From the NCBI GenBank assembly GCA_018238155.1, contig JABCTZ010000006.1, forward strand, positions 72,837 through 136,836: a DNA stretch of 64,000 bases. The letters are read 5' to 3'. The notes beneath the pieces were generated by a model, which was not told where the DNA came from, did not search any database, and saw nothing but the letters and a program-made list of their open reading frames with translations. The DNA comes from Candidatus Heimdallarchaeota archaeon. Its GTDB lineage: Archaea > Asgardarchaeota > Heimdallarchaeia > JABLTI01. This document shows, piece after piece, positions 8,371 to 45,635 of the stretch. Made by a program: the position numbers and the translations under genes. The first letter of the stretch is position 1. Every line of letters begins with the position of its first letter.

Positions 8371-9672
8371 ATGGAAGAAAACCAACTAACTGAACAAGAA
8401 ACAGATACTAGAATAGAAGAAGTATTGAACGATAATCGAGCAGATAAAAAGCAAATTAGTCCAGTATTAAAGGTGATTATTCTAGGCATATTGACCTTCT
8501 TTACTATTGTAGCTGTTTCAGTTTTACACGCAAATAAACCAGAATTCCTCGCTAAAGTCAGTACGTATGAGTTATCAGAGTTTCAGGAATCGTTATTTGA
8601 TTCTGTGCAATATGCTTCGTATCTTATTTTCGGTATTATTATAGGAATACTTGCTGATAGATTCGCAAAGCGGAGAATCTTTATTCTTATTGGAAGTGCT
8701 GTTTCAGCAGTTTTCTTCTTTCTAATGACGATTGTGGGTCAATATTGGCTTCTCTTGATTTTCAGGTTTATCCAAGGAGCCTTCACTGTTATGATTTGGC
8801 AGATGTTAATGACTATGATTCTTGATGTTTCTACAGAAAAGGATCGTGGAAGAAACATGGGTATTTATGGCTCTTTACTTGCATTAGGTTTTGGTTTAGG
8901 ACCAATGTTTGGAGGTTTCTTATCTAAGGCGGGAGTTAATGTACCCTACTACACTGCTACTGGTCTTGTCTCACTAGTTTTTATTCTCTCTTTAGTTATT
9001 TTACGAGAAGCAGAAACTACTGCTGATAGACCCACAATTATTGACTCACTTTCAATTGTTAAAAAATATCCCCGAATTATTATCCCCAGTATATTCAATT
9101 TTGTGGATAGATTTACTATTGGTTTTATAGTCTTTTTAATACCGTTCTTCCTTAATGATGAATTAGGGCTTCCAGCTGAAAAAAGAGGTCTCTCTCTTGC
9201 AATCTTTGCTTTACCATTTATTCTTCTTCAATTTCCGATGGGCAAACTAGCAGATAAAATTGGTCGGTATATTCCTTTATTGATTGGTAGTTTATGTTAT
9301 TGTATTGTTTTACCGATGGTAGGCTATTTTAGCGCCAATAATTTTACCGTGTTGTTAATACTGTTAGCTCTTTTAGGAGTCTTCTCAGGTATTTCTGCAC
9401 CTGCTAATATGACTTTAGTTGGAGACTTTGTTAAAAAAGAGGATAATGCTATGGGAATGGGTTTCTTTAATTTCGCCGGAAATTTAGGTGTTACTCTTGG
9501 TCCTTTAGTTGGTAGTTTATATGGCATTTATGGATACAACACAATTTTTCTATCAGCTGGCATTGGAAGAATGATCCTGTTAGTTATTAGTGTTCTCTTG
9601 ATCTTCTTAGTTTTCAAAGAAAAATTACAACCTTCTCCTAAAGGAGCTGTTGAATTAAATACTGAAAAATAA
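8371..9672 (+). CDS. MFS transporter
   Basis: About 12 TM segments; GILADRFAKRR and GKLADKIGR motifs. Confidence 0.9.
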   Translation: MEENQLTEQETDTRIEEVLNDNRADKKQISPVLKVIILGILTFFTIVAVSVLHANKPEFLAKVSTYELSEFQESLFDSVQYASYLIFGIIIGILADRFAKRRIFILIGSAVSAVFFFLMTIVGQYWLLLIFRFIQGAFTVMIWQMLMTMILDVSTEKDRGRNMGIYGSLLALGFGLGPMFGGFLSKAGVNVPYYTATGLVSLVFILSLVILREAETTADRPTIIDSLSIVKKYPRIIIPSIFNFVDRFTIGFIVFLIPFFLNDELGLPAEKRGLSLAIFALPFILLQFPMGKLADKIGRYIPLLIGSLCYCIVLPMVGYFSANNFTVLLILLALLGVFSGISAPANMTLVGDFVKKEDNAMGMGFFNFAGNLGVTLGPLVGSLYGIYGYNTIFLSAGIGRMILLVISVLLIFLVFKEKLQPSPKGAVELNTEK

Positions 9673-9777: not shown

Positions 9778-10803
9778 TTAAGGTGTAATCACCGTTCTGA
9801 ATTCTGCAGTAAACTTTCTAAGACGATGTTGTACTTCATTAATAGCACCTGCTTCTAGTGGAACTGTTTTTGTTACCACATTAGTTAAGTCAAGTTTTCC
9901 TTTTTCTGCTAATTCAAGTAAGAAAGGTATCTCAGATAATAGGTGATCAGAACATCCAATGATTTCTTTTTCTCTACATATTGCCTCATAAGAATCGATA
10001 TTGAATGGTTGTTTTGTAATTCCGACTAATCCCAATCTCCCAAATCGAGCCAATGATTTAATTCCTTGTTCCATTGTTAGTTGAAGTCCAATTAATTCTA
10101 ATGCGACATCCACACCATCTCCGAGAGTTAGCTCCATTATTTTCTCCACAGGATCATTTTCTTTGGCGTTGATAGGTATCGCTCCTAGTTTTTCTGCATA
10201 AAGCAATTTTTTCTTATCAATATCTACAGCGTAAATCTCTCGAGCACCAAAAACTTTTGCTAACTGCAATGCAGAAATCCCCAATCCTCCTAGACCAAAG
10301 ATTGCTATGTTTTCTCCCGGTTGAAATCTTGTTTTCCTTAGTGCATGAAGCGAAGTTGCTGAAGAACACATCATCACTGAAGCATGTTCAAATGAAACCC
10401 CATCTGGTAGCTTGTATATACCTCGAGTGGGTACAGCAATATATTCTGCGTATCCACCATCAACATCTTTCCCTATCATTTTACCCTTGACACAAAACTG
10501 TTCTGTACCTTGAATACAGTATTTACACTTACCACATGTAATCATATAATTAACACAAATACGGTCTCCAATTTGAAAATCAGTTACATTTTCGCCAATT
10601 TTTTCAATTTCCCCTGCAACTTCATGCCCTAAAGTTATTGGTAAATATCCCACAGGAGAAACCCCCGCTCTATAATGAACATCCGAATGGCAAATTCCTG
10701 CTGCTTTTATTCGAATTAGAACTTCATCTGTCTTTGGTTCCGGTTTTGGAATTTCTCTTTCCTCTAAATCTTTACCAATTTCAATTAATTGAATAGTTTT
10801 CAT
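9778..10803 (-). CDS. Zn-dependent alcohol dehydrogenase (MDR family)
   Basis: GICHSD, GHEVAG, CGKCKYC...C, G.GGLG. Confidence 0.92.
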   Translation of the reverse strand: MKTIQLIEIGKDLEEREIPKPEPKTDEVLIRIKAAGICHSDVHYRAGVSPVGYLPITLGHEVAGEIEKIGENVTDFQIGDRICVNYMITCGKCKYCIQGTEQFCVKGKMIGKDVDGGYAEYIAVPTRGIYKLPDGVSFEHASVMMCSSATSLHALRKTRFQPGENIAIFGLGGLGISALQLAKVFGAREIYAVDIDKKKLLYAEKLGAIPINAKENDPVEKIMELTLGDGVDVALELIGLQLTMEQGIKSLARFGRLGLVGITKQPFNIDSYEAICREKEIIGCSDHLLSEIPFLLELAEKGKLDLTNVVTKTVPLEAGAINEVQHRLRKFTAEFRTVITP

Positions 10804-10965: not shown

Positions 10966-13900
10966 GTGTTTCATATTTCCAACTATTACATCGGTACCAA
11001 TGTAGGTTCTGTTTCAGTGAACCTTGTCTATATTGATGATGACGATAATGTTGCTACATTCAAACGACCTCATCTTGGCAATCCAAAACAAGTTCTGAAC
11101 TATCTCTTAGAAGAAAAGATCGGTAAAAAAGATAACTATTATGGTGTTAGTGGTTCTTTTGGTGATATTTCTGAAATTGTTGCAGTAGAACGTGCTCTAA
11201 ATTCTTTCGATGAAAAATTCGATGTTGTTCTCTCTTTAGGAGGGGAAGCACTTATTCTTTATGTCTTAGGAGAAGACGGTCATATCGCCAACGTCATGTC
11301 TCACGATAAATGTGCAGCCGGAAGTGGAGAGTTTTTCATACAACAAATTGATAGATTAGGTCTAACTCTTCCTGAAGCCATTGCACTTGCATTGAAGGGT
11401 AAGAAAACTGAATTAGCTTCAAGATGTTCTGTTCATTGTAAATCTGATATTACACACAAATTGAATCGTGGAGAAGCACTAGTTGAAGATTTATTAACTT
11501 CCGTTCTTGCGAGTATAGTGAGCAAAGTACAAGCTTTGATCTTTCAATCTCGAGCCACTGTCAAACGTATGTTAGTCATTGGCGGTGTTTCATTAAATGA
11601 AGCCTTTATTAAAATATTGCGCGAAGAGATTTCTGGTGTTAATGTAGTAATAAAAGAAGTAAGTCCCGTTTTCGAAGCATATGGAACTGCACTCTTGGTA
11701 CGTGACAAACCTGTTTATCAACAAATCAAGTTAAAAATAACTAAAAGTTTCACATCTAACCCTTCCCTATCTGATTTCGAAAAACAAGTAACAATTATTG
11801 AAGCAACAGAAAATAAGACAAAATTCAAGAGGAACACTGTTTTTCATTTAGGTGTTGATGTGGGTTCTACAACAACAAAAGCTGTATTGGTTGACCCTTC
11901 TGATTCAAGCGTAGTTGCATCTTATTATGGAAGAACAAGTGGAAACCCAATTGAGGCAACAAAGAACTGTCTTGTAGAGCTTATTTCTCAAGTCGGTAAT
12001 CAGAAAGTTTCTTTGGTCGGAGTAACTGGATCTGGAAGATCACTTGTCGGTGCTTTTCTGGGAACACCGGCAATTTATAACGAGATTTCAGCTCATTCCC
12101 AAGGAGCTGTTTTTTATGATCCCGAAGTTGATACCATCTTTGAAATTGGTGGTCAAGACTCCAAATATATGCTCTTGCAGAATGGTGTTCCAGTTGACTA
12201 TGCTATGAATGCTACCTGTTCCGCAGGCACAGGCTCATTTCTGGAAGAAAGTGCAAAAGGTGATTTGGGTATATCTGTTTTTGATATCTCTAAAATAGCA
12301 ATTGATGCAAAGCAACCTATTAGATTCAAAGCTGATTGTGCAGCATTCATAAATACGGATATTCGCACTGCACTACAAGAAGACTATGGCAGAGAAAATA
12401 TCGTTGCAGGATTAGTCTACTCAATTGTTGATAATTATCTAAACAAAGTAAAAGGAGCAAGACAAGTAGGCAAAAAAATCTTCTTTCAAGGTGGCGTTGC
12501 AAAAAATCATTCAGTTGGATATGCATTCGCACAAACAACTGGGAAACAAATTATTATTCCTCCAAACCCCGAACTTGTTGGAGCGTTTGGCATTGCTTTA
12601 ATTGCGAAAATTAAATTCGAACAACATGAAATAACAGAAATGCCAAAATCAACTTCTCTCGAGACTTTGATCAAAGCAGAACTTAAACATCTTGGAAGTG
12701 TTACTTGCAAATCTTGCAAGAATTTTTGCAAAATTGAGCGATATGAAGTTAGTGGTCGACGTTTCTTATTTGGTGGAAGTTGTTCAAAATACGAGCACCA
12801 GTGGAAAGGGTCCGAAAAAACAGCTGAAGTGGAAGACCTTGTTCAAAAAAGAAATGAAATAATGTTTGACGATTCAAATAATAACAAGACGAAAATTTCT
12901 AGAAGTAAAAAATCAATTGGAATTCCTCGAGCTTTGTTAACTCACAGCTTATATCCACTGTACTCCACTTTCTTAAGAGAATTAGGTTATCAAGTCATTC
13001 TCTCTGGAATTGATGATGATAAAGAATTAATGACAAATGCTCCATTTTGCTATCCAATTCAAATTTTGCATGGTGCAGTCTTAGATCTTGTAAAGAGAAA
13101 AATTAAAACGATATTTATACCACATATTGTTAAATTGACAAAAATATATACTTGGAGGGATTCAACATTCTGCCCAATAACTCAAGCAAGTCCTTACATT
13201 ATCTCACAAGCATTTGAAGATACTACTATTTTAAAACCAACTCTTGATTTCTCACGAGGGTATACCAAAGAAAATGCCTTAATCAAAATGGCCGTAGACG
13301 AATTACATCACACTAAAAAATTAGCTAAGAAAGCCTTTCAAAAAGCTGTTGAAGCTCAATTAGATATTGAGAAACAATTCTTGCTTTTAGGACAAGACGC
13401 AATTAACAAATTGAAAGGGACTGATGAAATCGGTATCTTATTGGTCGGAAGAAGCTACAATGCTTTTCCATCTGAAACCTCTCTGAAAATACCAAAGAAA
13501 CTCTCGAGCATGGGTATTACAGTAATACCTTTTGATTTTCTGGAAAAAACTGATACAGACGATATTCCCTGGTATTTTGCAAACTATGTCAAAGTAGCAA
13601 TTGATCTTGCGTTAAAACACGAAAATCTCTACGTACTCTATATTAATAGTTTCAGTTGTACAATAGATGCTTTTATTCAAAATTATGTTAGTACCGAGAT
13701 GACTTCAAAACCTTATCTCTTTTTAGAATTGGATGCACATACTGCAGATGCGGGGATCCAAACACGATTAGAAGCCTTTCTTGAAATTGTTAAAAACTAC
13801 AAAATAAGTGAGAAAATAGACAAAGAAGATTCATTTCAAGTAGCACAAGTAAAACGTAGAAATGGAAAAACAGTAGTAATAACTTCCCAAGGGAAAACTC

Positions 13901-15351
13901 TCGATATAAAAGACTCTCGAGTCAAACTCTATTCACCAAGCTTTTCAAAAAATCATACCGATATCGGTGAAAAATTCATGTCTATGTTTGGCTTTAACAT
14001 GGGTGTTGCCAATGACATTAAACTAGACTACGCCGTGAAAGGATTAAGATGTAGTTCAGGAAAAGAATGTATTCCTCTTCCAATCGTTTTAGGTCAAATA
14101 ATGACTCTTGTTGAAAATAAAAAACCTGAGGAACTTATAGGTATGTTCATGATTCGTGGAGGTTCACCCTGTGCCGTTTATAGCTATTATCATTACATTG
14201 AACAATTTTTAGAAAGTAATAAAATAGAAAATGTTTTCATTTATAGATTGGATTATCTTACAAAGTTCTTAGGTATGAAATTAATTGATGTTTTGCGCTT
14301 TTTCCCAAAAGCAATGGTAATTGCTGATATTATTGATGAAATTGAAAGCTCTCTCCGAGTTGTAGGTGATCAAGATAGTTTAGATTCACTTCAGAGAGTT
14401 TGGGGAGAATTTTTGAACAACATTACCAACAAAAGAAATTTTACCAAAGGATTACCGAGGCTCATTAGAAATATTAGAAAAATACCTCGAAAAGACTCAC
14501 CAATAGACTATCCAAAAGTACTGATCAGTGGTGATTTCTTTGTGCGATTTAGCCCCTTCTTTTTGAAGGAATTACGTGATATTTACAGTGAAAATGGCAT
14601 CATCGTTAAATCCTCAGATTTACTTGAATTAAATTTGTATGGTACAAGTTTTAATGGTGGTTATGAGGTTTTGAAGAAATGGAATAAAGACCCCACGAAA
14701 TTCTTAACTCAATTGAGAGCTTTTCTCACACCTTGGGATCTAGCTTCTAGAAACCTAATTATTTCAAAGATTGTTTTAAAATTTCTACATTCACTTGAAA
14801 GAAGAATTAGAAATCGATTCAAGAAAACAAGATTATTATATGCTGAACCAAATGATATTGGAAAGCTGATAAATCACTCTAGCCCTTATATCTCTCGTTT
14901 AATTTTTGGCGAAGCAATTCCAACAATTGGTAAAGGATTAGAAACTTTGGAAGAGTCTGCATATGATTCTCTGATATTAACTGGTCCCTTTAATTGTCTG
15001 CCATACAAAATATCTCAGGCAATTTTGAAACCTATTTACTTTGAACATAACACTCCTTTCCTAGTATTTGATGTAGATATTACCGCAATTACACCCAACA
15101 CGAAACGATTAATTCATGCCAACATTGAACAAATAAAAAGAAAAAGAACGCAAAATCTTCGTGAAGTAAAATGGTCTCATAGAGTAGAGAGTAGATTGAA
15201 ATCACAAGAAAGAAAGCAAGAACGCAAAAAAGAACGTTTATACAGAATGGTTCAACGGAAAGAAAAAATTTGGTCTCAACAATTAGAGCGAACTGAAAGG
15301 CGACTTAAGAATCGAACGATTATTAATCTGATTAGATGGAGGAGAAAATAG
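10966..15351 (+). CDS. Fused PlsA/Ger-type protein: two BcrAD/BadFG activase domains, DUF2229 and a 2-hydroxyacyl-CoA dehydratase-like domain
   Basis: DKCAAGSG, LGVDVGSTTTK, NEISAH, EIGGQDSK, MNATCSAGTGSF, FQGGVA, CKSCKNFC, IGIPRALL, LDAHTADAGIQTRLEAF, ECIP, PFNCLP. Confidence 0.85.
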   Translation: MFHISNYYIGTNVGSVSVNLVYIDDDDNVATFKRPHLGNPKQVLNYLLEEKIGKKDNYYGVSGSFGDISEIVAVERALNSFDEKFDVVLSLGGEALILYVLGEDGHIANVMSHDKCAAGSGEFFIQQIDRLGLTLPEAIALALKGKKTELASRCSVHCKSDITHKLNRGEALVEDLLTSVLASIVSKVQALIFQSRATVKRMLVIGGVSLNEAFIKILREEISGVNVVIKEVSPVFEAYGTALLVRDKPVYQQIKLKITKSFTSNPSLSDFEKQVTIIEATENKTKFKRNTVFHLGVDVGSTTTKAVLVDPSDSSVVASYYGRTSGNPIEATKNCLVELISQVGNQKVSLVGVTGSGRSLVGAFLGTPAIYNEISAHSQGAVFYDPEVDTIFEIGGQDSKYMLLQNGVPVDYAMNATCSAGTGSFLEESAKGDLGISVFDISKIAIDAKQPIRFKADCAAFINTDIRTALQEDYGRENIVAGLVYSIVDNYLNKVKGARQVGKKIFFQGGVAKNHSVGYAFAQTTGKQIIIPPNPELVGAFGIALIAKIKFEQHEITEMPKSTSLETLIKAELKHLGSVTCKSCKNFCKIERYEVSGRRFLFGGSCSKYEHQWKGSEKTAEVEDLVQKRNEIMFDDSNNNKTKISRSKKSIGIPRALLTHSLYPLYSTFLRELGYQVILSGIDDDKELMTNAPFCYPIQILHGAVLDLVKRKIKTIFIPHIVKLTKIYTWRDSTFCPITQASPYIISQAFEDTTILKPTLDFSRGYTKENALIKMAVDELHHTKKLAKKAFQKAVEAQLDIEKQFLLLGQDAINKLKGTDEIGILLVGRSYNAFPSETSLKIPKKLSSMGITVIPFDFLEKTDTDDIPWYFANYVKVAIDLALKHENLYVLYINSFSCTIDAFIQNYVSTEMTSKPYLFLELDAHTADAGIQTRLEAFLEIVKNYKISEKIDKEDSFQVAQVKRRNGKTVVITSQGKTLDIKDSRVKLYSPSFSKNHTDIGEKFMSMFGFNMGVANDIKLDYAVKGLRCSSGKECIPLPIVLGQIMTLVENKKPEELIGMFMIRGGSPCAVYSYYHYIEQFLESNKIENVFIYRLDYLTKFLGMKLIDVLRFFPKAMVIADIIDEIESSLRVVGDQDSLDSLQRVWGEFLNNITNKRNFTKGLPRLIRNIRKIPRKDSPIDYPKVLISGDFFVRFSPFFLKELRDIYSENGIIVKSSDLLELNLYGTSFNGGYEVLKKWNKDPTKFLTQLRAFLTPWDLASRNLIISKIVLKFLHSLERRIRNRFKKTRLLYAEPNDIGKLINHSSPYISRLIFGEAIPTIGKGLETLEESAYDSLILTGPFNCLPYKISQAILKPIYFEHNTPFLVFDVDITAITPNTKRLIHANIEQIKRKRTQNLREVKWSHRVESRLKSQERKQERKKERLYRMVQRKEKIWSQQLERTERRLKNRTIINLIRWRRK

Positions 15352-32980: not shown

Positions 32981-34066
32981 TTATACTTCCCATTTTTTAC
33001 ACTTACTGCCCCAACAAGCAATGGTTTTCCCATCACGAATAACTCTAATAACTTCGCAGAGATTAGAACAATCTTTACACTCAAAACCCTTAGTTTCATA
33101 TTGTAAATCAGGAATATTCCAACCAACGAATTTAGTGTCATAAGATTTTTTGATCATTTTATTTAAAGCAAGAATTGCTGCACCGATTGCACCCATAACA
33201 GCAAAGTTCTCTGGAACAATAACTTCCTGATTTAATGAGCGTTGAAAGGCATCACGAATGCCAATATTCGCAGCCACACCTCCTTGAAACATGATAGGAC
33301 CAAGAATTTCTTTTCCTTTCCCGACATTGTTCAAGTAATTTCTTACTAGTGCTTCTGAAAGACCTCTGATAATATCTTCAACGGGATGACCTAATTGCTG
33401 TTTGTGTATCATATCACTTTCAGCAAATACAGTACATCGACCTGCTATACTAACTGCATGTTCGGATTTTAAAGCTAAATCACCAAACTGTTCAATTGGT
33501 ATCTCGAGTCTATTTGCTTGCTGATCTAAAAATGACCCCGTACCAGCTGCACAAACAGTATTCATAGCAAAATCAATAGCAATACCATTGCGAATTAAAA
33601 TTATTTTAGAATCTTGCCCGCCTATTTCAAAAATCGTTTGGATATCCGTTCTTACATTCAAAGAAGCTACTGAGTGAGCTGTTATTTCATTTTTAACAAT
33701 ATCTGCTCCAACAATTAATCCGGTTAATTGTCTTGCACTACCTGTTGCTCCTACACCAGAAATAACAAAATCTTCTCCAATCTTCTCTTTCAGTAGTACA
33801 ATTCCACGCTGTACTGATTGGATGGGTTTTCCTTCTGTTCGAATATAAATTGATTCAACGAGTTCCTTATTTCCATTAATCACTGCAAGATTAGTGCTTA
33901 TAGATCCAACATCTACTCCAAGGAAATATTGATTAGCTAATGCATCAGCCATTATTCCTTCATTTGTTTCTCTCAAAACTTTTCCTTTATTAGGAGAACT
34001 TACCAAATCACTTTTTTGCACTTTTATACAATCACTTTCACAATTTGTTTTAGTATTATTAGTCAT
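32981..34066 (-). CDS. CoA-substrate-specific enzyme activase (BcrAD/BadFG, HgdC-like ATPase)
   Basis: LGVDVGSIST, NEITAH, EIGGQDSK, MNTVCAAGTGSF, GRCTVFAESD, FQGGVA, CKDCSNLC. Confidence 0.9.
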   Translation of the reverse strand: MTNNTKTNCESDCIKVQKSDLVSSPNKGKVLRETNEGIMADALANQYFLGVDVGSISTNLAVINGNKELVESIYIRTEGKPIQSVQRGIVLLKEKIGEDFVISGVGATGSARQLTGLIVGADIVKNEITAHSVASLNVRTDIQTIFEIGGQDSKIILIRNGIAIDFAMNTVCAAGTGSFLDQQANRLEIPIEQFGDLALKSEHAVSIAGRCTVFAESDMIHKQQLGHPVEDIIRGLSEALVRNYLNNVGKGKEILGPIMFQGGVAANIGIRDAFQRSLNQEVIVPENFAVMGAIGAAILALNKMIKKSYDTKFVGWNIPDLQYETKGFECKDCSNLCEVIRVIRDGKTIACWGSKCKKWEV

Positions 34067-35216
34067 AATTGAATGTCTCCCAAGTTACTTTTTCGGGTTC
34101 TTTTCCACCTAGTCTCTGTTCTCGTTTTAAATGTAACATATCTACAAAGGCTTCAAGTCGTGTTTGATATCCTGCTTCGCCTGTTTGTTCATCAACTATC
34201 ATCGGTAAAACGGGCATATCATATTCTTTTGTAATGCTTGGTATTATGTTTTGAGCACTAAGTTCTGGAATACATGAAAATGGCCATACATGCACCATTC
34301 CATCCCAACCTTTCTTTTTCAAGAAAATCGTCGTTCCAATGCTCTCTTGTCCATCCCCTCCAATATACTCTTGCATATATGGTCTTGCTTCTTTTCTATA
34401 AACTTTGTAATATTCCTTTTTGAATGGGTTGATTTTTGCCGGAATGTCTGAGAATTTCTTTAAGGACACTCCACATCGTGCTGCTACGCCAAGTTTGTTC
34501 AAACGACGGTAAAGATCTAAATGAAGCATTGGTTCTAATACTGCATAGATTTCCCCTATGACCCCTACTTTCAATGGTATAATTGATTCATCAACTTCTA
34601 TTTCATTTTTGAAAATGGCTGGTATTTCTTTATGGAATTTCTTTACTTCTCTAACTTTACGTAACTTGAAGAGTTTTTCGTAAACTTTTGCTGCGACATT
34701 ATCAGTTGTATCTTCAACTGCTTCTACTGCACGATAAAAATTGATGAGGTTCTCAATAAGATCTATTGAATAATTCTTGGTCCAAATTTTTCGTAAAACA
34801 CCAATTGTTTTCAAGGTGCTGAAACCGTTGCTGATTTCCTTGAAGTCTTTTATCATTTCAATCGGTTTATGGTAATCAATATTAGTGTATTTAACCGTAT
34901 ATCCTAAGTCTTTACAGATTACTCTTTGAACTGGACCATAACAACTTGCTCGACAAGTACCAATTCCGCCAATTTGGAAAACATGATCTGCTCCTCGTTC
35001 AATACTATCTAGTAGAGACCCAAGGCATAATTTGAAAGGTGTGCACATCCATTCTGGAGAATGTTTAGATCCACGGGTAATTGTTTCCTTATTCGGTGGT
35101 GTAGGCTCAATGATATTTTCTTCTGGTACTTCTAGTTCTTGAAAGACTGATTTAAATAATAAGGTTAGTGAACCAAAATAGGGATAAGTAACAGGCATAA
35201 ATTTTAACTCCATCAA
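34059..35216 (-). CDS. 2-hydroxyacyl-CoA dehydratase-like Fe-S subunit (PlsR-like)
   Basis: MCTPFK, GTCRA, PFSCIPE, VDEQTGEAGYQTRLEAF; overlaps both neighbours. Confidence 0.8.
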   Translation of the reverse strand: MMELKFMPVTYPYFGSLTLLFKSVFQELEVPEENIIEPTPPNKETITRGSKHSPEWMCTPFKLCLGSLLDSIERGADHVFQIGGIGTCRASCYGPVQRVICKDLGYTVKYTNIDYHKPIEMIKDFKEISNGFSTLKTIGVLRKIWTKNYSIDLIENLINFYRAVEAVEDTTDNVAAKVYEKLFKLRKVREVKKFHKEIPAIFKNEIEVDESIIPLKVGVIGEIYAVLEPMLHLDLYRRLNKLGVAARCGVSLKKFSDIPAKINPFKKEYYKVYRKEARPYMQEYIGGDGQESIGTTIFLKKKGWDGMVHVWPFSCIPELSAQNIIPSITKEYDMPVLPMIVDEQTGEAGYQTRLEAFVDMLHLKREQRLGGKEPEKVTWETFNYD

Positions 35217-36367
35217 GCTAATACCATTGGGGAATCTTTCTTTGTTCCCGGAAGAGAAACTCCTTCTTTCATCTTCTTTAAACGTAGGATATCTGTGAAT
35301 GCTTCTAATCGGGTAAGAAAACCAGCCTCTCCTGTATGTGCATCTAAAGTGATAATCATTAATGGTGTTTCAGATTTAATTCTCTTAGAAAATTGTTTCA
35401 CATATTCCAGAGAAACAGAGACAGGTCCACAAATGAAATTTACCAACATTAATACACCATCTATTTTTTTATTTTCAAGATAGTGCATTGTCGTTCCAAC
35501 AAGTTCATGTTCAAATTCAAAATAGAGATAATCGTTTTCCCCGAGAAAATATTTTTCTTTCTCTTCTTTGGTAACATTATCTATATCTTTAACCATCAGC
35601 CCATAATCATCAAATGTTAATCGTTTTATTTGGCGTTCTATTATTGAACGCGGCATTTGTTGAGCAGTAATAATATCTACGCCCAATTGTTGCATTTTTT
35701 TCCTCATCTCCAAAGAGGCGAATTCATCATTAATAACATATGGGTGGCTAACTACTGCAATTTTCAAGACTTCTTCTCCATCTTGGATATTGGGTGGATC
35801 ATTCAGTAAGATTTCTGAATGCTCCCATTTTGCCAAATCCTCTTCGCTGATAATTAAATTGTTCAGATATTTCTTATCCGCTCTTAATCCTTTGATGGTA
35901 GCATTTAGGATTTTAAATGGGTTCTTTGTGAAATGAAATCCAATTTGGAATACTATTTTTAGTAAGCGTAATAGTCCATGTCCTTCTCGAGAGGTTGAAT
36001 AATACGGTCCAAAAACCGGTGGAGCGTTTTCAAAAGTTGCCTTTATGATGTCCGCTAAAGCAATGAATTTTGGACATCCAACTTCTTTTTTCTTTCTACT
36101 GGCAAATCTTGGAACAAATAAATAGTCTACTTTATCTTGCAGTTCAAGAATGTGCCCATAAAATAATTTTGCTGAATAACAGTCGTCATCTAATGTAGAT
36201 TTAATTCCATTAGTTTTCATTTGTTTTGTTGTTGGAGCTGAAATAACAACTTCTGCACCTAGTTTCTCAAAAAAAGTCGTCCACATTGCTTCAAATTTAA
36301 AGAACAGTAGTGCACGTGGAATACCAACGCGTTTCTTCTTTTTTTGTGCAAGTGATCTCTTTGACAT
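35213..36367 (-). CDS. DUF2229 / acyl-CoA dehydratase activase-related subunit
   Basis: VGIPRALL, DCYSAK, GCPKF, FICGP, LDAHTGEAGFLTRLEAF. Confidence 0.8.
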   Translation of the reverse strand: MSKRSLAQKKKKRVGIPRALLFFKFEAMWTTFFEKLGAEVVISAPTTKQMKTNGIKSTLDDDCYSAKLFYGHILELQDKVDYLFVPRFASRKKKEVGCPKFIALADIIKATFENAPPVFGPYYSTSREGHGLLRLLKIVFQIGFHFTKNPFKILNATIKGLRADKKYLNNLIISEEDLAKWEHSEILLNDPPNIQDGEEVLKIAVVSHPYVINDEFASLEMRKKMQQLGVDIITAQQMPRSIIERQIKRLTFDDYGLMVKDIDNVTKEEKEKYFLGENDYLYFEFEHELVGTTMHYLENKKIDGVLMLVNFICGPVSVSLEYVKQFSKRIKSETPLMIITLDAHTGEAGFLTRLEAFTDILRLKKMKEGVSLPGTKKDSPMVLA

Positions 36368-36591
36368 TCTTCTTTTCCTCTTTAGATTGACTGAAAGAAA
36401 CTTTTTATAATTCTTTCCTTACTAATCATTATTTAATATACAACTTAAATTAACCTTAATCTCTTCTATTATAAAAGAGAACTTTTTTTCTTATTTATTA
36501 TCAGAATCATTTCTCGAAGTGATGAGAATGCTTTTTTAATACCTTGAAAACATTCAAGTAGGAAAATAAATTGATGAAATGAGGGTATCTT

Positions 36592-36843
36592 TTGTCAAGT
36601 TGTGATAATAAAAGAAAGAAAACATTGGATATGCTACTTATTTCTATTAGAAATAATGAACTCTTTGAACTTCTTAAAGAATACTTGAGATTAAAGAATA
36701 ATTTCGAAGAGCCTATTGATGCTAAAAAAATGAGAGAAAGAGCTGAAGAATGTTTGCAAGAAGATTTATTAGATTATGCTCGTGCATATAAGCTTCTTAA
36801 ACTTGCTACGAAAATTCTGAAAGCTTGTAATGGTATAAAATAA
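36592..36843 (+). CDS. Small hypothetical protein
   Basis: Fills the gap, gagggt RBS before TTG, helical charged sequence. Confidence 0.45.
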   Translation: MSSCDNKRKKTLDMLLISIRNNELFELLKEYLRLKNNFEEPIDAKKMRERAEECLQEDLLDYARAYKLLKLATKILKACNGIK

Positions 36844-36857
36844 TAGTAATGAAGTTT

Positions 36858-37568
36858 TCACTTCATTACATCATCTGGTTTGAGTGTTGTCCAGATTTTT
36901 GCTTCTCCTGAGCGTATCTTTTTGAATTCTGGAATGTAGCGAAGGAGAATAATTGCCAATATGCCAAACGAATATAGAACTGTGAACGGTATTCCATACC
37001 CTGAACCGTCTACTAGGTAACTATGTGGAAATATTTGTATTATTTGTGTTCCAGGACCTATCAAATCTAGAATGAAAAACACTGGTGAAATTAAGCTTAC
37101 ACCCCAACCCGAACCAACACCAGAATAACCTGAAAATCTACTTAACAGAACAATGAGTAATGGGAAGATAAGTGGTCCAATAGGCCAGTAGAAGAACATC
37201 AACGTTCCTGCCATTGTAGCGAGTCCTTTGCCTCCTTTAAATCCTAAATAAGGCATCCAACAATGTCCTGCTACTGCAGCTAATGCTGTTAACACTACAA
37301 GATAATCTAAATGCGGATGATTACGCGCCAATGCGTATTCTACAATAGCACATGCAGCTGCACCTTTTACAAGATCAGTACCTCCGACTAACATTCCCCA
37401 CCATACTCCTGTTGCTCGGATAGCGTTTCTTGTGCTTACTGAGCCTGAACCAAATTCACGTGGGTCTATTCCCTTTACTAATTTACATACAATGAATGAT
37501 GTAGGGAATCCTCCTAATAATAAACCAATAATTGGGGCAACAAAAAATTGCCATATAATTGATGCCAT
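36858..37568 (-). CDS. plsY: Glycerol-3-phosphate acyltransferase PlsY (divergent)
   Basis: IDPREFGSGS, DLVKG, GHCWMPYLGFKGGKG, multiple TMs. Confidence 0.85.
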   Translation of the reverse strand: MASIIWQFFVAPIIGLLLGGFPTSFIVCKLVKGIDPREFGSGSVSTRNAIRATGVWWGMLVGGTDLVKGAAACAIVEYALARNHPHLDYLVVLTALAAVAGHCWMPYLGFKGGKGLATMAGTLMFFYWPIGPLIFPLLIVLLSRFSGYSGVGSGWGVSLISPVFFILDLIGPGTQIIQIFPHSYLVDGSGYGIPFTVLYSFGILAIILLRYIPEFKKIRSGEAKIWTTLKPDDVMK

Positions 37569-37597
37569 TTTTATTTTTCTCCTGGTTTCTTTTGACT

Positions 37598-38494
37598 TTA
37601 ATTCTTAGTGTTTTCAAGCCAAGAATTTTCATATTCTCCAAGATAACCTAAAGTTAATGATTTCTTGCCAACAAAGTTTGCTACAATTGCTCCTGTCTCT
37701 TGAATAATTATCTTTTTGTTTTTAGGATTATATTGTTGCATATATTTAACGATATCCTCAGCTGCTTCAAGCCAACGAGTGTGCCCGATAATCACGTGAT
37801 CACTATACCCATTGATATTTTCTAAAGCTGCTCTGCCATATTTCTTCATTTGTTGAATAATGATTTCATCATTTGCTCTTATTTTTCCTTGAACAATTAT
37901 TTTTCCTTCTTCTAATTTAACAATGGGTTTTACTTTAAAGAAATCAGCGAGATACTTCTTTGTTTTGGGTACTCGTCCTGTTCTCACAAGATTTTCCATA
38001 GTGGATATAATCCCTGCAAAATTTATTTCTTCCATAAATTCAGTTAACTTTTCAATTATCGCTTCAAATGACATCTCATTTTGTGCCATTTTTCCTGCTT
38101 CTAAAACTAAAATTGCTAATGCAACGCTTGTTACTTTGGAATCAATGATGTGGATTTTCTTTTCTGGGAACCTCTGATTAACTAAAGCTTGTGTATTTGT
38201 TGCGATAGGTGACATTAGATTTGAAACGAAAATACCAATGACTGTATCTGCTTTTTGCAATGCTTCCTCTACTTTTTGAAAGATACTTCCAGGTGATGGT
38301 GTGGATGTTGTTGGTATTTCAGATGCCGTTCTTTCATAGTATTCATCAAGAGTTAATTCTCCTGTTGGACCACTAGAATTAAAAACGTGGTCAGAAAAAA
38401 TAATCTTTACTGGAATTATTGTTATATCTAATTTTTCAATTAATTCCACAGGTAAATCGCATGTATCGTCACTGATTATTGCTACTTTTGCCAT
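37598..38494 (-). CDS. degV: DegV/FakB fatty-acid-binding protein
   Basis: IISDDTCDLP, PTTSTPSPG, IIDSK, L.RTGR, KPI. Confidence 0.9.
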   Translation of the reverse strand: MAKVAIISDDTCDLPVELIEKLDITIIPVKIIFSDHVFNSSGPTGELTLDEYYERTASEIPTTSTPSPGSIFQKVEEALQKADTVIGIFVSNLMSPIATNTQALVNQRFPEKKIHIIDSKVTSVALAILVLEAGKMAQNEMSFEAIIEKLTEFMEEINFAGIISTMENLVRTGRVPKTKKYLADFFKVKPIVKLEEGKIIVQGKIRANDEIIIQQMKKYGRAALENINGYSDHVIIGHTRWLEAAEDIVKYMQQYNPKNKKIIIQETGAIVANFVGKKSLTLGYLGEYENSWLENTKN

Positions 38495-38665
38495 TGAATG
38501 ATATCTCCTACAATATCTGTTTTTATTATAATTTCCCCTGGAAAAACCAGGTTAGATTGTTATTTTTACTTTCATCATTAAAAAAATATCTAAGAAAATC
38601 ACTTTTGGAGTAAGTAAAAATGAATTTTTCCTTCAAAAAAAACATTTAAATGGTACTCAGATGAG

Positions 38666-39076
38666 TTACTCACCTGCTTGTCCGTATTTGAAATCTGGTG
38701 CACAAAAGCTTGATTTTTCACCTTTTAACCATGCGTTTAGGTTATCTTTCTCGTAAACGACCTTGTCATTAATCGAGAGTTTTATTTTATTAAGGCACCA
38801 ATCATCATCTCTTGCAGTTTGTGTTCTTTTCTTGAAACACAAATAACGGAAGGTAGAACTATCCATATTCTCTGGTACATCTAAATCAAAGCTATCTGTA
38901 TTTCCTCTTTCAAAATCATCATAATGAGGTTTGTCTAGGTCCCATTCATGACCACCAACGTAGAGTACTACTGGATCATCTGTTGAGCTTCTTCTTTTCT
39001 CACTGCAAGTTGTGAGCTCGATGACAATTTTGTTAATTTTTTCGTAATTTTTGCCAGTCATTATTTCTTCCTTCAT
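38666..39076 (-). CDS. Stand-alone PLAT/LH2 domain protein
   Basis: TDDPV.L, DDFERGNTDSF, DDWCLNKI signature. Confidence 0.7.
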   Translation of the reverse strand: MKEEIMTGKNYEKINKIVIELTTCSEKRRSSTDDPVVLYVGGHEWDLDKPHYDDFERGNTDSFDLDVPENMDSSTFRYLCFKKRTQTARDDDWCLNKIKLSINDKVVYEKDNLNAWLKGEKSSFCAPDFKYGQAGE

Positions 39077-40210: not shown

Positions 40211-40456
40211 TCATTCCTCTATATCTGCTGACCAATAATTGCCGCGTTGCCTTCGCTTTAATTCTGCTTGTTTAGATTTATTCCAATTTTGAATTTCTGA
40301 GAAATAGCCTACAATTCTACTAATACCGTAAACATTGTTGCTACCACATGATGGACACGTGCATTTTTCCTCAGAACCACTTGATTCTAAATTTTCATTT
40401 ATACAATGCTTTTTGAGGTTTTTCTCTTTCAATTTGTCTTTGCTCTGATAAATCAT
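40211..40456 (-). CDS. Stand-alone NrdD C-terminal (Zn-ribbon plus glycyl-radical loop) protein
   Basis: CPSCGS...SRIVGYFS....WNKSKQAELKRR. Confidence 0.75.
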   Translation of the reverse strand: MIYQSKDKLKEKNLKKHCINENLESSGSEEKCTCPSCGSNNVYGISRIVGYFSEIQNWNKSKQAELKRRQRGNYWSADIEE

Positions 40457-42664: not shown

Positions 42665-44065
42665 ATGAATGTTCTAGTGCTAAGTTTTCTAGTTATTTCA
42701 TCTCTTTTACTTCTTGTTTTAGTTGTTATTTCACTTTCCTTTCTTGGGCTATATCTCTCAGAATTAGGTTTGTGGTTTTCTTGGTTACCTTTTGGGTTAG
42801 TTATTGCTTCTATTCCTTTTCTAATACAATTATCTGCTGAACCTCACCCAAGTGTTGATTTCTTTTTATTGTTGCTAAGTACGATTTTTAACATAGGTAC
42901 ATTTCTTAGATTGATTACTCCTTTTCTATTGATCTATCGAACAAATAAAGAATTCAAAGCAAAAATGAAACAATCACTAGGAACGGACTATTTATTATAT
43001 ATCGACCCTAGAATTAGATCCCGGTTTTTCAAGAACGTTCACTTTCGATTGAAGCACTATTTCTGTGGAATAAGAGAAAAAAGGCTTCTTCAGAATATTG
43101 AGATACAAGAAGATGTTATCTACAAGACAGTAGGAAACGAGGAAATAAGATTAGATGCCTACTATCCAAGAAAAGATGGCCTATTTCCAATCATTGTTTT
43201 TATTCATGGTGGGGGTTGGATGAGGGGTTCAAAAGATGAGGGTACGAATGAAAAGGTTGTTATGTTGCTAGCAACATATGGCTATTCAGTTTTTAATATT
43301 GATTATCGATTATCCCCTTCTGAACCTCTGACTCACAATATAAAACGTCCCCATGAACATCCGACTATTCTTGAAATGGTATCTGATGTAAAATCAGCAA
43401 TAACATTTGTTTTGAAAAATGGAACGCAATATAAAGGAGATACAGAGAATATTTTTCTATTTGGCAGATCTGCAGGTGCACATCTAGCTCTTCTAACAGC
43501 ATTTAGTTTTGATGAGAGCTTCTTTGATGAATGCAATGAGAATTTCTCATTAGATAATTCACCAATAACGGGTGTGATAGCTTTCTATCCAATAACCGAT
43601 ATGGAAGATTTAGATGAATTTTATGATGCTCTAAATCCTTTAAGATTAGCCCTTGTAAGGGGAACTGGTGGAATAGAAGAAGAGAAGCTTAATCTGTATG
43701 AGTTGTTTTCTCCAATAAAATATGTGACAAAAGATAATGCATCAAAGCTTCCTCCGATTTTTCTTGCAGCAGGAAAGTTTGATCGAATTGTCGATGTTTA
43801 TCAATCAGAAGAATTATCTGAAGAGCTTGATAAATTAGCTATCCCGAATGTTTATCTTGAACTTCCGTGGGCAAATCATGCATTTGATTTGTTGCTTTCA
43901 GGACCGGGAGGACAATTAGTGATTAAATATATGACCCAATTTTTAGTTTGGAGTCTCTCTAGAAAGAATCTACTTCAAATTGAAGCACTTGCAAACAAGT
44001 CTGGGTTAACAAATATCGTTTCTGTTGCTAAGATGAAATCACTTCAACAAACAAAGGAAAATTGA
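42665..44065 (+). CDS. Membrane-anchored alpha/beta hydrolase (HSL-like esterase/lipase)
   Basis: N-terminal TMs; HGGGW, GRSAG, D, HAFD. Confidence 0.88.
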   Translation: MNVLVLSFLVISSLLLLVLVVISLSFLGLYLSELGLWFSWLPFGLVIASIPFLIQLSAEPHPSVDFFLLLLSTIFNIGTFLRLITPFLLIYRTNKEFKAKMKQSLGTDYLLYIDPRIRSRFFKNVHFRLKHYFCGIREKRLLQNIEIQEDVIYKTVGNEEIRLDAYYPRKDGLFPIIVFIHGGGWMRGSKDEGTNEKVVMLLATYGYSVFNIDYRLSPSEPLTHNIKRPHEHPTILEMVSDVKSAITFVLKNGTQYKGDTENIFLFGRSAGAHLALLTAFSFDESFFDECNENFSLDNSPITGVIAFYPITDMEDLDEFYDALNPLRLALVRGTGGIEEEKLNLYELFSPIKYVTKDNASKLPPIFLAAGKFDRIVDVYQSEELSEELDKLAIPNVYLELPWANHAFDLLLSGPGGQLVIKYMTQFLVWSLSRKNLLQIEALANKSGLTNIVSVAKMKSLQQTKEN

Positions 44066-44204
44066 GTGATAGAGTGTAGATTTTTGAATACCTATTGATA
44101 GATAGCATTTTTTTTCAGATTTATGTAGTAATATATAGTTCATTGTACCATTGTTTAATTGTGTGATGTAGTTACCATTGGTTGGTTGGGTTGGTTAAAA
44201 AAAC

Positions 44205-45635
44205 TTGATAACACAAGCAATAATTCTTTTAGCAATTGCAGTAGCCCTCTTCTTAATAATGGTACCAGTTTCATACTCCATTTTTGGTATTTGGTTATCA
44301 GAATTGGGGTTCTGGGTTGCTTGGATTCCTCTTGGAATGATTGCTTATGAAACATATCAAATAATTGCAATAGAATCACAAATTGATTTACTACCTGTAC
44401 AAGGTATATTCTTCGTTTGTATCATTTTTAATTCGATTACGCTTGTAAGAATGATTATTCCACTCATTAGAGTAAAATCTACAAACAAACGTCTATCGCA
44501 AGCAATGAAACAATATCTTGGACCTGATTATCTCCATTATATTGCTTCTTCAAATTGTGTCGGGTTCTTCAGTTGTGTAAAATTCAAATTTACTTATTAT
44601 TTAACAAGCTTACAACGTAAGAATTTGAATAAACGGGTAATAACAATCAGAAATTTGACTTATCGTGTGATAGATGGAAAGGATTTGAAATTAAATATTC
44701 ATTATCCAACAGCAGAAGGAATAAATCCTATTATTGTATTCATTCATGGTGGAGGATGGATATTTGGTTCTAAAGATAAACCTGCTCATGATCGGGTTTG
44801 TAAATTACTGGCAAGTTTCGGATACACAGTATTTAATATCAATTATCGATTAATACCTCCTGAATATATTTTCTCCAAAAAACCTTTACTATTTGAAAAT
44901 CCAGTATTGAACGAACTAGTTTCAGATGTTGATAGTGCAATTTCATTTGCAATAAAAAATGCTCTTAAATATAATGGGAATCCAAATAGTTTATTCCTAT
45001 TTGGTCGCTCTGCAGGAGCACATTTAGCTTTGTTGAGCACTTTTCTACCTGATACATATTCAAAAATATCTGGTGTCATCGCTTTATATCCTATTACTGA
45101 CCTAGAAGGATTCTATGATTTTTACAAAAATAATCACAAAAGAAAAATCTCCTTGATAGGAAGCTCATTTGACGATACAGATGAACATCTGATGCTTTAC
45201 AAGCTCTTCTCACCACTTAGCTATATCAATGAAGATACAAGTGAGGATATTCCACCTGTTTTCCTAGCTACTGGTGATAAAGATCGACTTGTAAATCCTG
45301 AACAATCAAAGAAATTGTTCAAACGAATGCAAAAACTAGGAATACGTAGTGTGTTATTGGACCTTCCTTGGGCAAACCACGGTTTTGATCAAGTTCTACT
45401 TGGTCCAGGTGGACAATTGGTGTTCAAGTATCTCATTCAATTTTTGGCTTGGGTTATAGCTCAGCAAGAACTGGATGATATAGAATTCAAAGCGAAAGAA
45501 TTTGGTTTAGATTCTGTTCTCTCGAGAGAGAAAATTCGCTCTATACATAGTATTGATGATACTAGAAAAACTAGAAAAGAGAACATTGTGAATGTTGTCT
45601 CAACGAATGAAGAACGATATAAACGTGAAAAATAG
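44205..45635 (+). CDS. Membrane-anchored alpha/beta hydrolase (tandem paralog)
   Basis: HGGGW, GRSAG, D, HGFD. Confidence 0.88.
   Translation: MITQAIILLAIAVALFLIMVPVSYSIFGIWLSELGFWVAWIPLGMIAYETYQIIAIESQIDLLPVQGIFFVCIIFNSITLVRMIIPLIRVKSTNKRLSQAMKQYLGPDYLHYIASSNCVGFFSCVKFKFTYYLTSLQRKNLNKRVITIRNLTYRVIDGKDLKLNIHYPTAEGINPIIVFIHGGGWIFGSKDKPAHDRVCKLLASFGYTVFNINYRLIPPEYIFSKKPLLFENPVLNELVSDVDSAISFAIKNALKYNGNPNSLFLFGRSAGAHLALLSTFLPDTYSKISGVIALYPITDLEGFYDFYKNNHKRKISLIGSSFDDTDEHLMLYKLFSPLSYINEDTSEDIPPVFLATGDKDRLVNPEQSKKLFKRMQKLGIRSVLLDLPWANHGFDQVLLGPGGQLVFKYLIQFLAWVIAQQELDDIEFKAKEFGLDSVLSREKIRSIHSIDDTRKTRKENIVNVVSTNEERYKREK

Follow-up and report, generated by a model that had tools for sequence, protein, structure and literature searches.

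A DUF2229-type reductase operon beside degV and plsY in a Heimdallarchaeota archaeon: probably two independent units

Genes of the locus

The stretch of DNA analyzed here (the window) comprises 64,000 nucleotides (nt) of contig JABCTZ010000006.1 from a Candidatus Heimdallarchaeota archaeon, and this report concerns a group of its genes encoding a PLAT-domain protein, a DegV/FakB-like protein, a PlsY-family acyltransferase and, next to these, two reductase subunits with an ATP-dependent activase (the trio). The first-pass annotation had read these genes as one module that would turn fatty-acyl esters into ether lipids. We favor, with moderate confidence, a different reading, namely that the locus holds two independent units, neighbors since recently in one Heimdall species group, and that the trio is an ATP-driven radical reductase and a sister of PlsA/Ger. 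Genes were called as longest open reading frames (ORFs) and families were assigned from Pfam and NCBIfam scans of the window, giving the following features (sizes in amino acids, aa).

38666-39076, minus strand: PLAT/LH2 protein, 136 aa (PF01477, 35.9 bits against a cut-off of 23)
37598-38494, minus strand: DegV/FakB-like protein, 298 aa (PF02645, E 4e-56)
36858-37568, minus strand: PlsY-family membrane acyltransferase paralogue, 236 aa (PF02660, E 9e-31, 107.6 bits against 24.1)
36592-36843, plus strand: small ORF between plsY and the reductase operon, 83 aa, no family match
36368-36857: AT-rich spacer between plsY and subunit A, 490 nt, TATA-like runs lying 35-110 nt before the start of subunit A
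35213-36367, minus strand: reductase subunit A (Red1-type), 384 aa (DUF2229, E 7e-44, and a weak C-terminal HGD-D match)
34059-35216, minus strand: reductase subunit B (Red2-type), 385 aa (DUF2229, 30.8 bits against 29.4, and a weak HGD-D match)
32981-34066, minus strand: ATP-dependent activase, 361 aa (BcrAD_BadFG, E 8e-40; TIGR00241, 160 bits against 125)
10966-15351, plus strand: four-domain protein of PlsA/Ger architecture, 1461 aa (Pfam domains)

Because the family scores are strong and orthologues occur in several genomes, the gene calls lie far beyond chance, and every gene described by the first-pass annotation was recovered in the ORF list and the family scans as real and correctly placed. 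Its attribution of the DNA to a probable Asgard lineage holds as well, as the window ends in an archaeal large-subunit ribosomal RNA gene and the closest homologues carry the name Candidatus Heimdallarchaeota.

The first unit consists of the degV-plsY pair, separated by 29 nt, with the PLAT gene 171 nt upstream of degV, and is one of several paralogous DegV/PlsY copies. The second appears to be a tightly packed three-gene operon, its genes joined by overlaps of 4 and 8 nt in the longest-ORF calls, from the DUF2229 branch of the benzoyl-CoA reductase/2-hydroxyacyl-CoA dehydratase superfamily. Judged by its TATA-like runs, the spacer between them (36368-36857) is likely the trio's own promoter region, and the two units would be transcribed separately. 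The small plus-strand ORF in this spacer is 70-74% identical in two related genomes (G001 and G009), versus 90-95% for its flanking genes, and its standing as a genuine gene is uncertain.

The reductase trio and the four-domain proteins

Several lines of evidence place the trio in the superfamily that includes benzoyl-CoA reductases, 2-hydroxyacyl-CoA dehydratases (HAD) and double-cubane cluster proteins (DCCP), as it combines an ASKHA-type activase carrying two cluster cysteines with catalytic subunits of the HAD fold. The activase matches HgdC (1hux) at E 4e-37, with HadI, MbdQ and the DCCP reductase also among its PDB matches, and is 46-48% identical to the second activase domain plus cysteine linker of bacterial four-domain proteins (E 1e-97). 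Both of its cluster-binding cysteines align with C457 and C497, invariant in an alignment of 13 four-domain proteins from which all invariant-cysteine positions were taken, and its C-terminal tail is cysteine-rich (CxxCxxxC..C). Subunit A has exactly three cysteines, Cys63, Cys98 and Cys313, which are invariant in 35 relatives and correspond to the alignment invariants C733, C775 and C947 (motifs C-x3-K-x3-GH, CP and F-x-CGP), and Cys58, Cys88 and Cys315 of subunit B are present in 32 of 32 Red2 (second-half) sequences. The trio thereby shows the three-cysteine motifs in both reductase halves and the cysteine-rich piece after the activase that mark the PlsA/Ger type. An AlphaFold model of subunit A (mean predicted local distance difference test score, pLDDT, 87.5) is most like DCCP, HadBC and BzdNO/MbdON, with a Foldseek probability of 1.0, a template modeling (TM) score of ~0.5 and an identity of 10-14%. 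Together, these sequence features indicate that the trio is a bona fide and probably active ATP-driven member of this radical superfamily, in the DUF2229 branch that also holds PlsA/Ger.

The window itself carries, 22 kb from the trio, a gene whose 1461-aa product contains two BcrAD_BadFG domains, DUF2229, HGD-D and a second reductase half, and which has a Zn-alcohol dehydrogenase gene (9778-10803) and a major facilitator superfamily (MFS) transporter gene (8371-9672) for neighbors. The published domain architecture of Ger is BBDHDDH, and Ger homologues in Lokiarchaeota and Heimdallarchaeota have been reported by Sahonero-Canavesi et al. 2022 (both PMC13159169). The gene of this genome with the published Ger architecture is the 1461-aa one and not the trio, which has a single activase domain and encodes A and B separately. 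Bacterial four-domain proteins align with the fused protein along its whole length at 28-31% identity (E 1e-148 to 1e-171), and a truncated Thermotogaceae copy does so over ~1150 residues; a Lokiarchaeum ossiferum protein is 52% identical to it. Searches with the fused protein, the four-domain alignment and the Thermotogaceae copy gave only uncharacterized homologues, from Heimdall, Lokiarchaeum, Bacteroidales, Spirochaetes, Brocadia, Scalindua, Syntrophaceae and a Thermotogaceae metagenome-assembled genome (MAG). Two Gastranaerophilales loci (L058 and L059) considered as fusions were rejected, both being stand-alone activases.

The trio is colinear with the fused protein: the activase corresponds to the second activase domain (residues 293-610, 35% identity, including the cysteine-rich piece), subunit A to Red1 (residues 645-951, 25% identity) and subunit B to Red2 (best match residues 1304-1398, 26% identity). 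The nearest non-Asgard relatives are split proteins of ~330 aa or A-B fusions of ~700 aa. A HMMER search with subunit A returned 288 clusters at E < 1e-30, the best 150 of which are all ~300-390 aa or 690-770 aa long, none being near 1400 aa, and the named relatives belong to Peptococcaceae, Desulfotomaculum, Thermoanaerobacter, Dehalococcoidia and Chloroflexota. When longer proteins were sought, A-B fusions of ~700 aa appeared at E 1e-63 to 1e-28 and four-domain proteins of ~1400 aa at E 1e-27 or worse.

The reductase halves were also placed in maximum-likelihood trees (quick IQ-TREE runs, support by the Shimodaira-Hasegawa-like approximate likelihood ratio test, SH-aLRT). The two halves separate first (SH-aLRT 100), and the first halves of the four-domain proteins then form one clade (SH-aLRT 100) that includes the fused proteins of the window and of L. 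ossiferum and also takes in sequences from Thermotogaceae, Brocadia, Scalindua, Desulfobacteraceae and Synergistia. Subunit A, on the other hand, falls in a separate, Asgard-only clade of split proteins with 19 members (SH-aLRT 100), and subunit B lies outside the four-domain Red2 clade (SH-aLRT 93-94), grouping in the first tree with split and A-B-fused Red2 sequences (SH-aLRT 98). Because of this tree placement, the gradient of length and E value and the 1461-aa gene in the same genome, the trio is best regarded as a paralogue, not an orthologue, of the PlsA/Ger-type four-domain proteins. The label "split PlsA/PlsR(Ger)-like" used by the first-pass annotation is supported by the domain set, the colinearity and the retained cluster cysteines, whereas the trio stands outside the four-domain clade and a complete gene of that architecture stands elsewhere in the window. 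We found no description of the split trio family in the literature searched.

By analogy with characterized relatives, the activase would act as a homodimer with one bridging [4Fe-4S] cluster that takes an electron from a low-potential donor, and ATP hydrolysis would drive this electron into the A/B heterodimer. Each of subunits A and B is predicted to hold a three-cysteine cluster with an open iron site, at which a carbonyl-bearing substrate would be reduced via a ketyl-type radical; an acyl ester is one candidate for this substrate.

The genome carries further sets of this kind. A paralogous A-B set at G000:C20:85836-88003 (G000 being the genome of the window) is followed by an activase reduced to a broken 3' remnant, with a cysteine-rich tail and an internal stop, and then by a Pyr_redox_2 gene, and another A-B set on contig C21 is without activase. 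The window activase, the sole intact stand-alone one found in the genome, may serve all three A-B sets.

The acyl unit, its linkage and the lipid question

DegV proteins hold a fatty acid for phosphorylation by a FakA-type kinase, and the acyl group of the resulting acyl-phosphate is transferred by PlsY to glycerol phosphate. The DegV of the window scores above the curated family cut-offs (PF02645, 190.8 bits against 27; TIGR00762, 195.8 against 99.7) and matches FakB1 chains in the PDB at E 1e-28 but falls below the FakB1 equivalog cut-off (126.9 against 350). The window PlsY aligns to Aquifex PlsY (5xj5, E 3e-12) and keeps the H..P..FKGGKG motif, with the GSGN.GATN..R loop altered at four positions and a score below the TIGR00023 cut-off (96.1 against 137.2). 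The PLAT protein finds its best solved matches in clostridial phospholipase C (C-terminal domain) and 5-lipoxygenase (N-terminal domain) and is a stand-alone membrane- or lipid-binding beta-sandwich without a catalytic domain; elsewhere, a PLAT gene beside degV was seen only in G001 and G009.

The genome encodes 11 DegV and 6 PlsY proteins. The PlsY family is thus expanded, with 6 Pfam-level copies here and 10-13 matches in the congeners G005, G006 and G010; bacteria usually carry a single PlsY. A FakA-like gene (330 aa, Dak2 and FakA middle domain only) is found on contig C6, where G000:C6:63777-66559 holds FakA-like, DegV and PlsY genes in a co-directional row. The PlsY of this row is the best-scoring in the genome, compared with which the window PlsY is more divergent (107.6 versus 160.7 bits). 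The same Dak2-PlsY spacing recurs in G005:C69, G006:C106 and G010:C47, and the row looks like a conserved fatty-acid activation module of the genus.

The first-pass annotation was correct that FakA and PlsC are not in the window, and of fakA, plsC and gpsA, which it would have sought elsewhere in the genome, only the FakA-like gene on C6 came to light. As no PlsC (PF01553), PlsX or GpsA was found in the genome (90.7% complete), the canonical route to diacyl lipids, which are the known substrates of PlsA and Ger, was not found, and not all steps of the FakA-FakB-PlsY-PlsC pathway to phosphatidic acid were found, FakA-like, DegV and PlsY proteins being present. The missing GpsA is not decisive, because PlsY can use glycerol-1-phosphate (G1P) as well as glycerol-3-phosphate (G3P) (PMC13400652). 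CarS is present, so an archaeal lipid route exists at least in part; geranylgeranylglyceryl phosphate synthase (GGGPS, PF01884) was undetected at E 0.01 in this genome and in 11 genomes of family f1. A divergent GGGPS candidate lies at G000:C7:83940-84623 and is 38% identical to a G012 protein that weakly matches PcrB. The distribution of PlsC and of the trio was scored across 40 relatives, which are not independent samples and thus yield a pattern rather than a test. PlsC was found in 0 of 11 relatives of family f1 and 0 of 10 of family f2, the families carrying the window's trio type, and in 14 of 14 relatives of f3 and 3 of 3 of f4. Across 41 genomes of the class, the distribution of the split DUF2229 trio is roughly opposite to that of PlsC. 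PlsY and Ger homologues in Asgard archaea have already been published (PMC6431249, PMC13159169), and no description linking DegV or FakA to Asgard archaea was found in the literature searched.

The A-B-activase trio is retained as a tight unit in eight relatives, and PLAT, DegV and PlsY genes flank it only in G001 and G009 besides the window, with proteins ~91% identical. The linkage of the trio to plsY/degV is thus not conserved, an outcome that the first-pass annotation had itself named as refuting its reading, and the neighbors differ elsewhere:

G010 (subunit A 77% identical): Ldh_2 and S41 peptidase and, 5 kb off, another DegV paralogue
Two sets of metagenome contigs (subunit A 72-74%): methyltransferase, GDSL lipase and a tetratricopeptide repeat (TPR)-protease
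G012 (subunit A 63%): histidyl-tRNA synthetase (HisRS), Arf GTPase and thermosome
G006 and a public MAG (subunit A 62-63%): MFS transporter and flavin reductase

The orthologue of the window PlsY stands alone on another contig in G010 and is absent from G006 and G012, both of which bear the trio; in G005 it is present, interrupted by stops as is the DegV, and no trio orthologue was found there. Around the bacterial and Asgard split sets, we found no consistent clue to the substrate in the neighborhoods, although downstream of them there is often a flavin reductase or Pyr_redox_2 gene. A stand-alone 2-oxoacid_dh-type acyltransferase-like protein (~272 aa) is encoded near split trios in G010 (L037:4596-5414), where it adjoins a DegV gene, and in L. 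ossiferum (L152:6067-6894).

The reading as two independent units accounts best for this pattern, and several observations weigh against it. In a simple simulation, a reductase locus falls within 0.5-1 kb of a DegV/PlsY-type gene by chance in only ~1.5-3% of cases. Lipid-flavored genes recur loosely near trio orthologues: G010 has DegV, acyltransferase-like genes and an AMP-binding gene about 5-6 kb from its trio, a GDSL lipase lies near the trio in the two sets of metagenome contigs, and two esterases are encoded 3.6 kb off in the window. The four-domain clade of the trees, made up of uncharacterized homologues, is defined by architecture and by taxa reported as Ger-positive, and the placement of the trio outside the PlsA/Ger clade depends on that definition. 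Lastly, an A-B-activase set of L. ossiferum has two PlsC genes immediately upstream. The adjacency, for its part, represents one event, seen in a single species group. The PlsC-linked Lokiarchaeum trio is only 25-30% identical to A and B of the window, and the 19-member Asgard clade in which the window subunit A sits does not include it; no orthologue of that set was found in the genome of the window. The window trio is closest to a second Lokiarchaeum trio (CP104013, 3.947 Mb; 47%, 45% and 68% for A, B and activase), beside which no PlsC gene lies. At least one lineage of the split family thus appears to be lipid-linked, which modestly raises the prior for the window trio, and because this other lineage adjoins PlsC, the trio may yet act on a lipid.

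Among the alternatives, the one that survives best is that of the first-pass annotation, in which the genes form one functional module, the trio reducing to an alkyl or vinyl ether the sn-1 ester that PlsY makes from glycerol phosphate and a fatty acid loaded by DegV. It can draw on the adjacency in three genomes with its chance estimate of a few percent, the part-for-part homology of the trio to the PlsA/Ger architecture, in which no cluster cysteine is lost, the likeness of the activase to the second activase domain of bacterial four-domain proteins (46-48%), the split trio that adjoins PlsC genes in L. ossiferum and the FakA-like gene in the genome, and the GpsA that was not found is not fatal to it given the acceptance of G1P by PlsY (PMC13400652). 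We nonetheless consider it unlikely, as the linkage is confined to ~91% identical genomes and so counts as one event, in none of G005, G006 and G012 are orthologues of both the trio and PlsY found together, a spacer with an opposite-strand ORF separates the units, the trio stands outside the four-domain clade and has only 25-30% identity to its PlsC-linked Lokiarchaeum counterpart, PlsC was not found in any of the 22 f1/f2 genomes and the genome has its own four-domain gene. The locus does not give a tight ester-to-ether module.

Quite unlikely, in our estimate, is a variant that does without PlsC, in which the trio would reduce the monoacyl-glycerophosphate ester made by a PlsY paralogue to a 1-O-alk(en)yl glycerophosphate, which other enzymes, perhaps archaeal ones, could complete into mixed lipids.

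The trio might also serve the fermentation of amino acids or aromatics, as a 2-hydroxyacyl-CoA dehydratase or aryl-CoA reductase with no lipid role, given that superfamily and fold are the same, that the activase resembles HgdC/HadI and that some orthologues or paralogues have aminotransferase, malic enzyme, OCD/mu-crystallin or Ldh_2 genes in their vicinity. The evidence makes this very unlikely. The subunits do not group with the dehydratases of amino-acid fermentation, an outcome that would have told against the first-pass annotation: their HGD-D match covers only the last ~60 residues and is below the cut-off. No solved dehydratase was retrieved by single-sequence search, a profile search matching only weakly. 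No CoA-transferase gene lies beside any trio examined, the one AMP-binding (CoA-ligase-type) gene being about 5-6 kb off in G010, and the activase is much nearer to the second activase domain of four-domain proteins than to HgdC. That the trio is a DCCP-like small-molecule reductase is most improbable, and a double-cubane cluster, which needs about six cysteines in DCCP, was rejected on cysteine count (three in all in A, three conserved in B), and sequence identity to DCCP is only 12-14%, even though DCCP is the top fold and profile match and its reductase is among the PDB matches of the activase.

Other genes of the window include two tandem genes of the BD-FAE/Abhydrolase_3 esterase-lipase type (42665-45635, plus strand), 3.6 kb from the PLAT gene. 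The gene at 24168-29705 (plus strand) probably encodes a surface protein, its 1845-aa product having FG-GAP and bacterial immunoglobulin-like domains. An 81-aa ORF (40211-40456, minus strand) matches only the C-terminal end of the anaerobic ribonucleotide reductase NrdD (profile positions 514-560 of 562) and may be akin to the spare-part glycyl-radical proteins that stand alone.

No known organisms are more closely related to eukaryotes than Asgard archaea, so the question of whether these produce fatty-acid-based lipids bears on the origin of bacterial-type membranes in eukaryotes. The Heimdall genus examined here has a conserved FakA-like/DegV/PlsY operon, unusually expanded PlsY and DegV families, a four-domain Ger-like gene of the published type and two to three sets of an undescribed split relative, with no PlsC found. 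Were an ester lipid the substrate of the trio, the locus would offer a concrete test of non-isoprenoid ether lipids in archaea; a single ester-to-ether module would mean such lipids in a Heimdall archaeon, and a 1-O-alk(en)yl glycerophosphate product would be a fatty-alkyl ether lipid precursor made by an archaeon. From a biochemical point of view, the split family occurs widely among anaerobes, and identifying its substrate would establish a new class of reaction in a superfamily of radical enzymes that has been studied in depth.

Relation to known systems

The systems nearest in domain content are Ger (Thermotoga maritima Tmari_0479; Desulfatibacillum alkenivorans SHJ90043), with which the trio shares BcrAD_BadFG, DUF2229 and an HGD-D-like C terminus, and PlsA/PlsR (Clostridium perfringens CPE1194/1195; a single gene in Enterococcus and Lactococcus), which has the same kinds of domain. 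ATP-driven radical chemistry as in Ger and PlsA/PlsR would by family also be expected for the trio, which differs from them in consisting of three proteins with one activase domain instead of two, in the low identity of the reductase halves (22-29%) and in its separate clade. The uncharacterized split or A-B-fused "acyl-CoA dehydratase activase-related proteins" of anaerobes and other Asgard archaea, on the other hand, belong to the same family and have the same order, A-B-activase; the bacterial ones are 30-40% identical to the trio, and subunit A is ~340 aa elsewhere in the split family compared with ~384-391 aa in the Heimdall orthologue group. HadBC/HadI, BzdNOPQ, MbdONPQ and DCCP with its reductase share the fold and the logic of an activase serving a catalytic dimer, whereas identity to them is 10-14%, the DUF2229 N-terminal half of the trio is distinct and no CoA-transferase gene lies nearby. 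As for the acyl unit, it resembles the FakA/FakB-PlsY route of Bacillota in its FakB1-like DegV (E 1e-28), in a PlsY that belongs to the family and in the FakA-like kinase on C6. It departs from that route in that DegV and PlsY score below equivalog cut-offs, the FakA-like protein has Dak2 and middle domains only, the genome search yielded no PlsX, PlsC or GpsA, and PlsY is expanded to 6-13 matches per genome in the genus.

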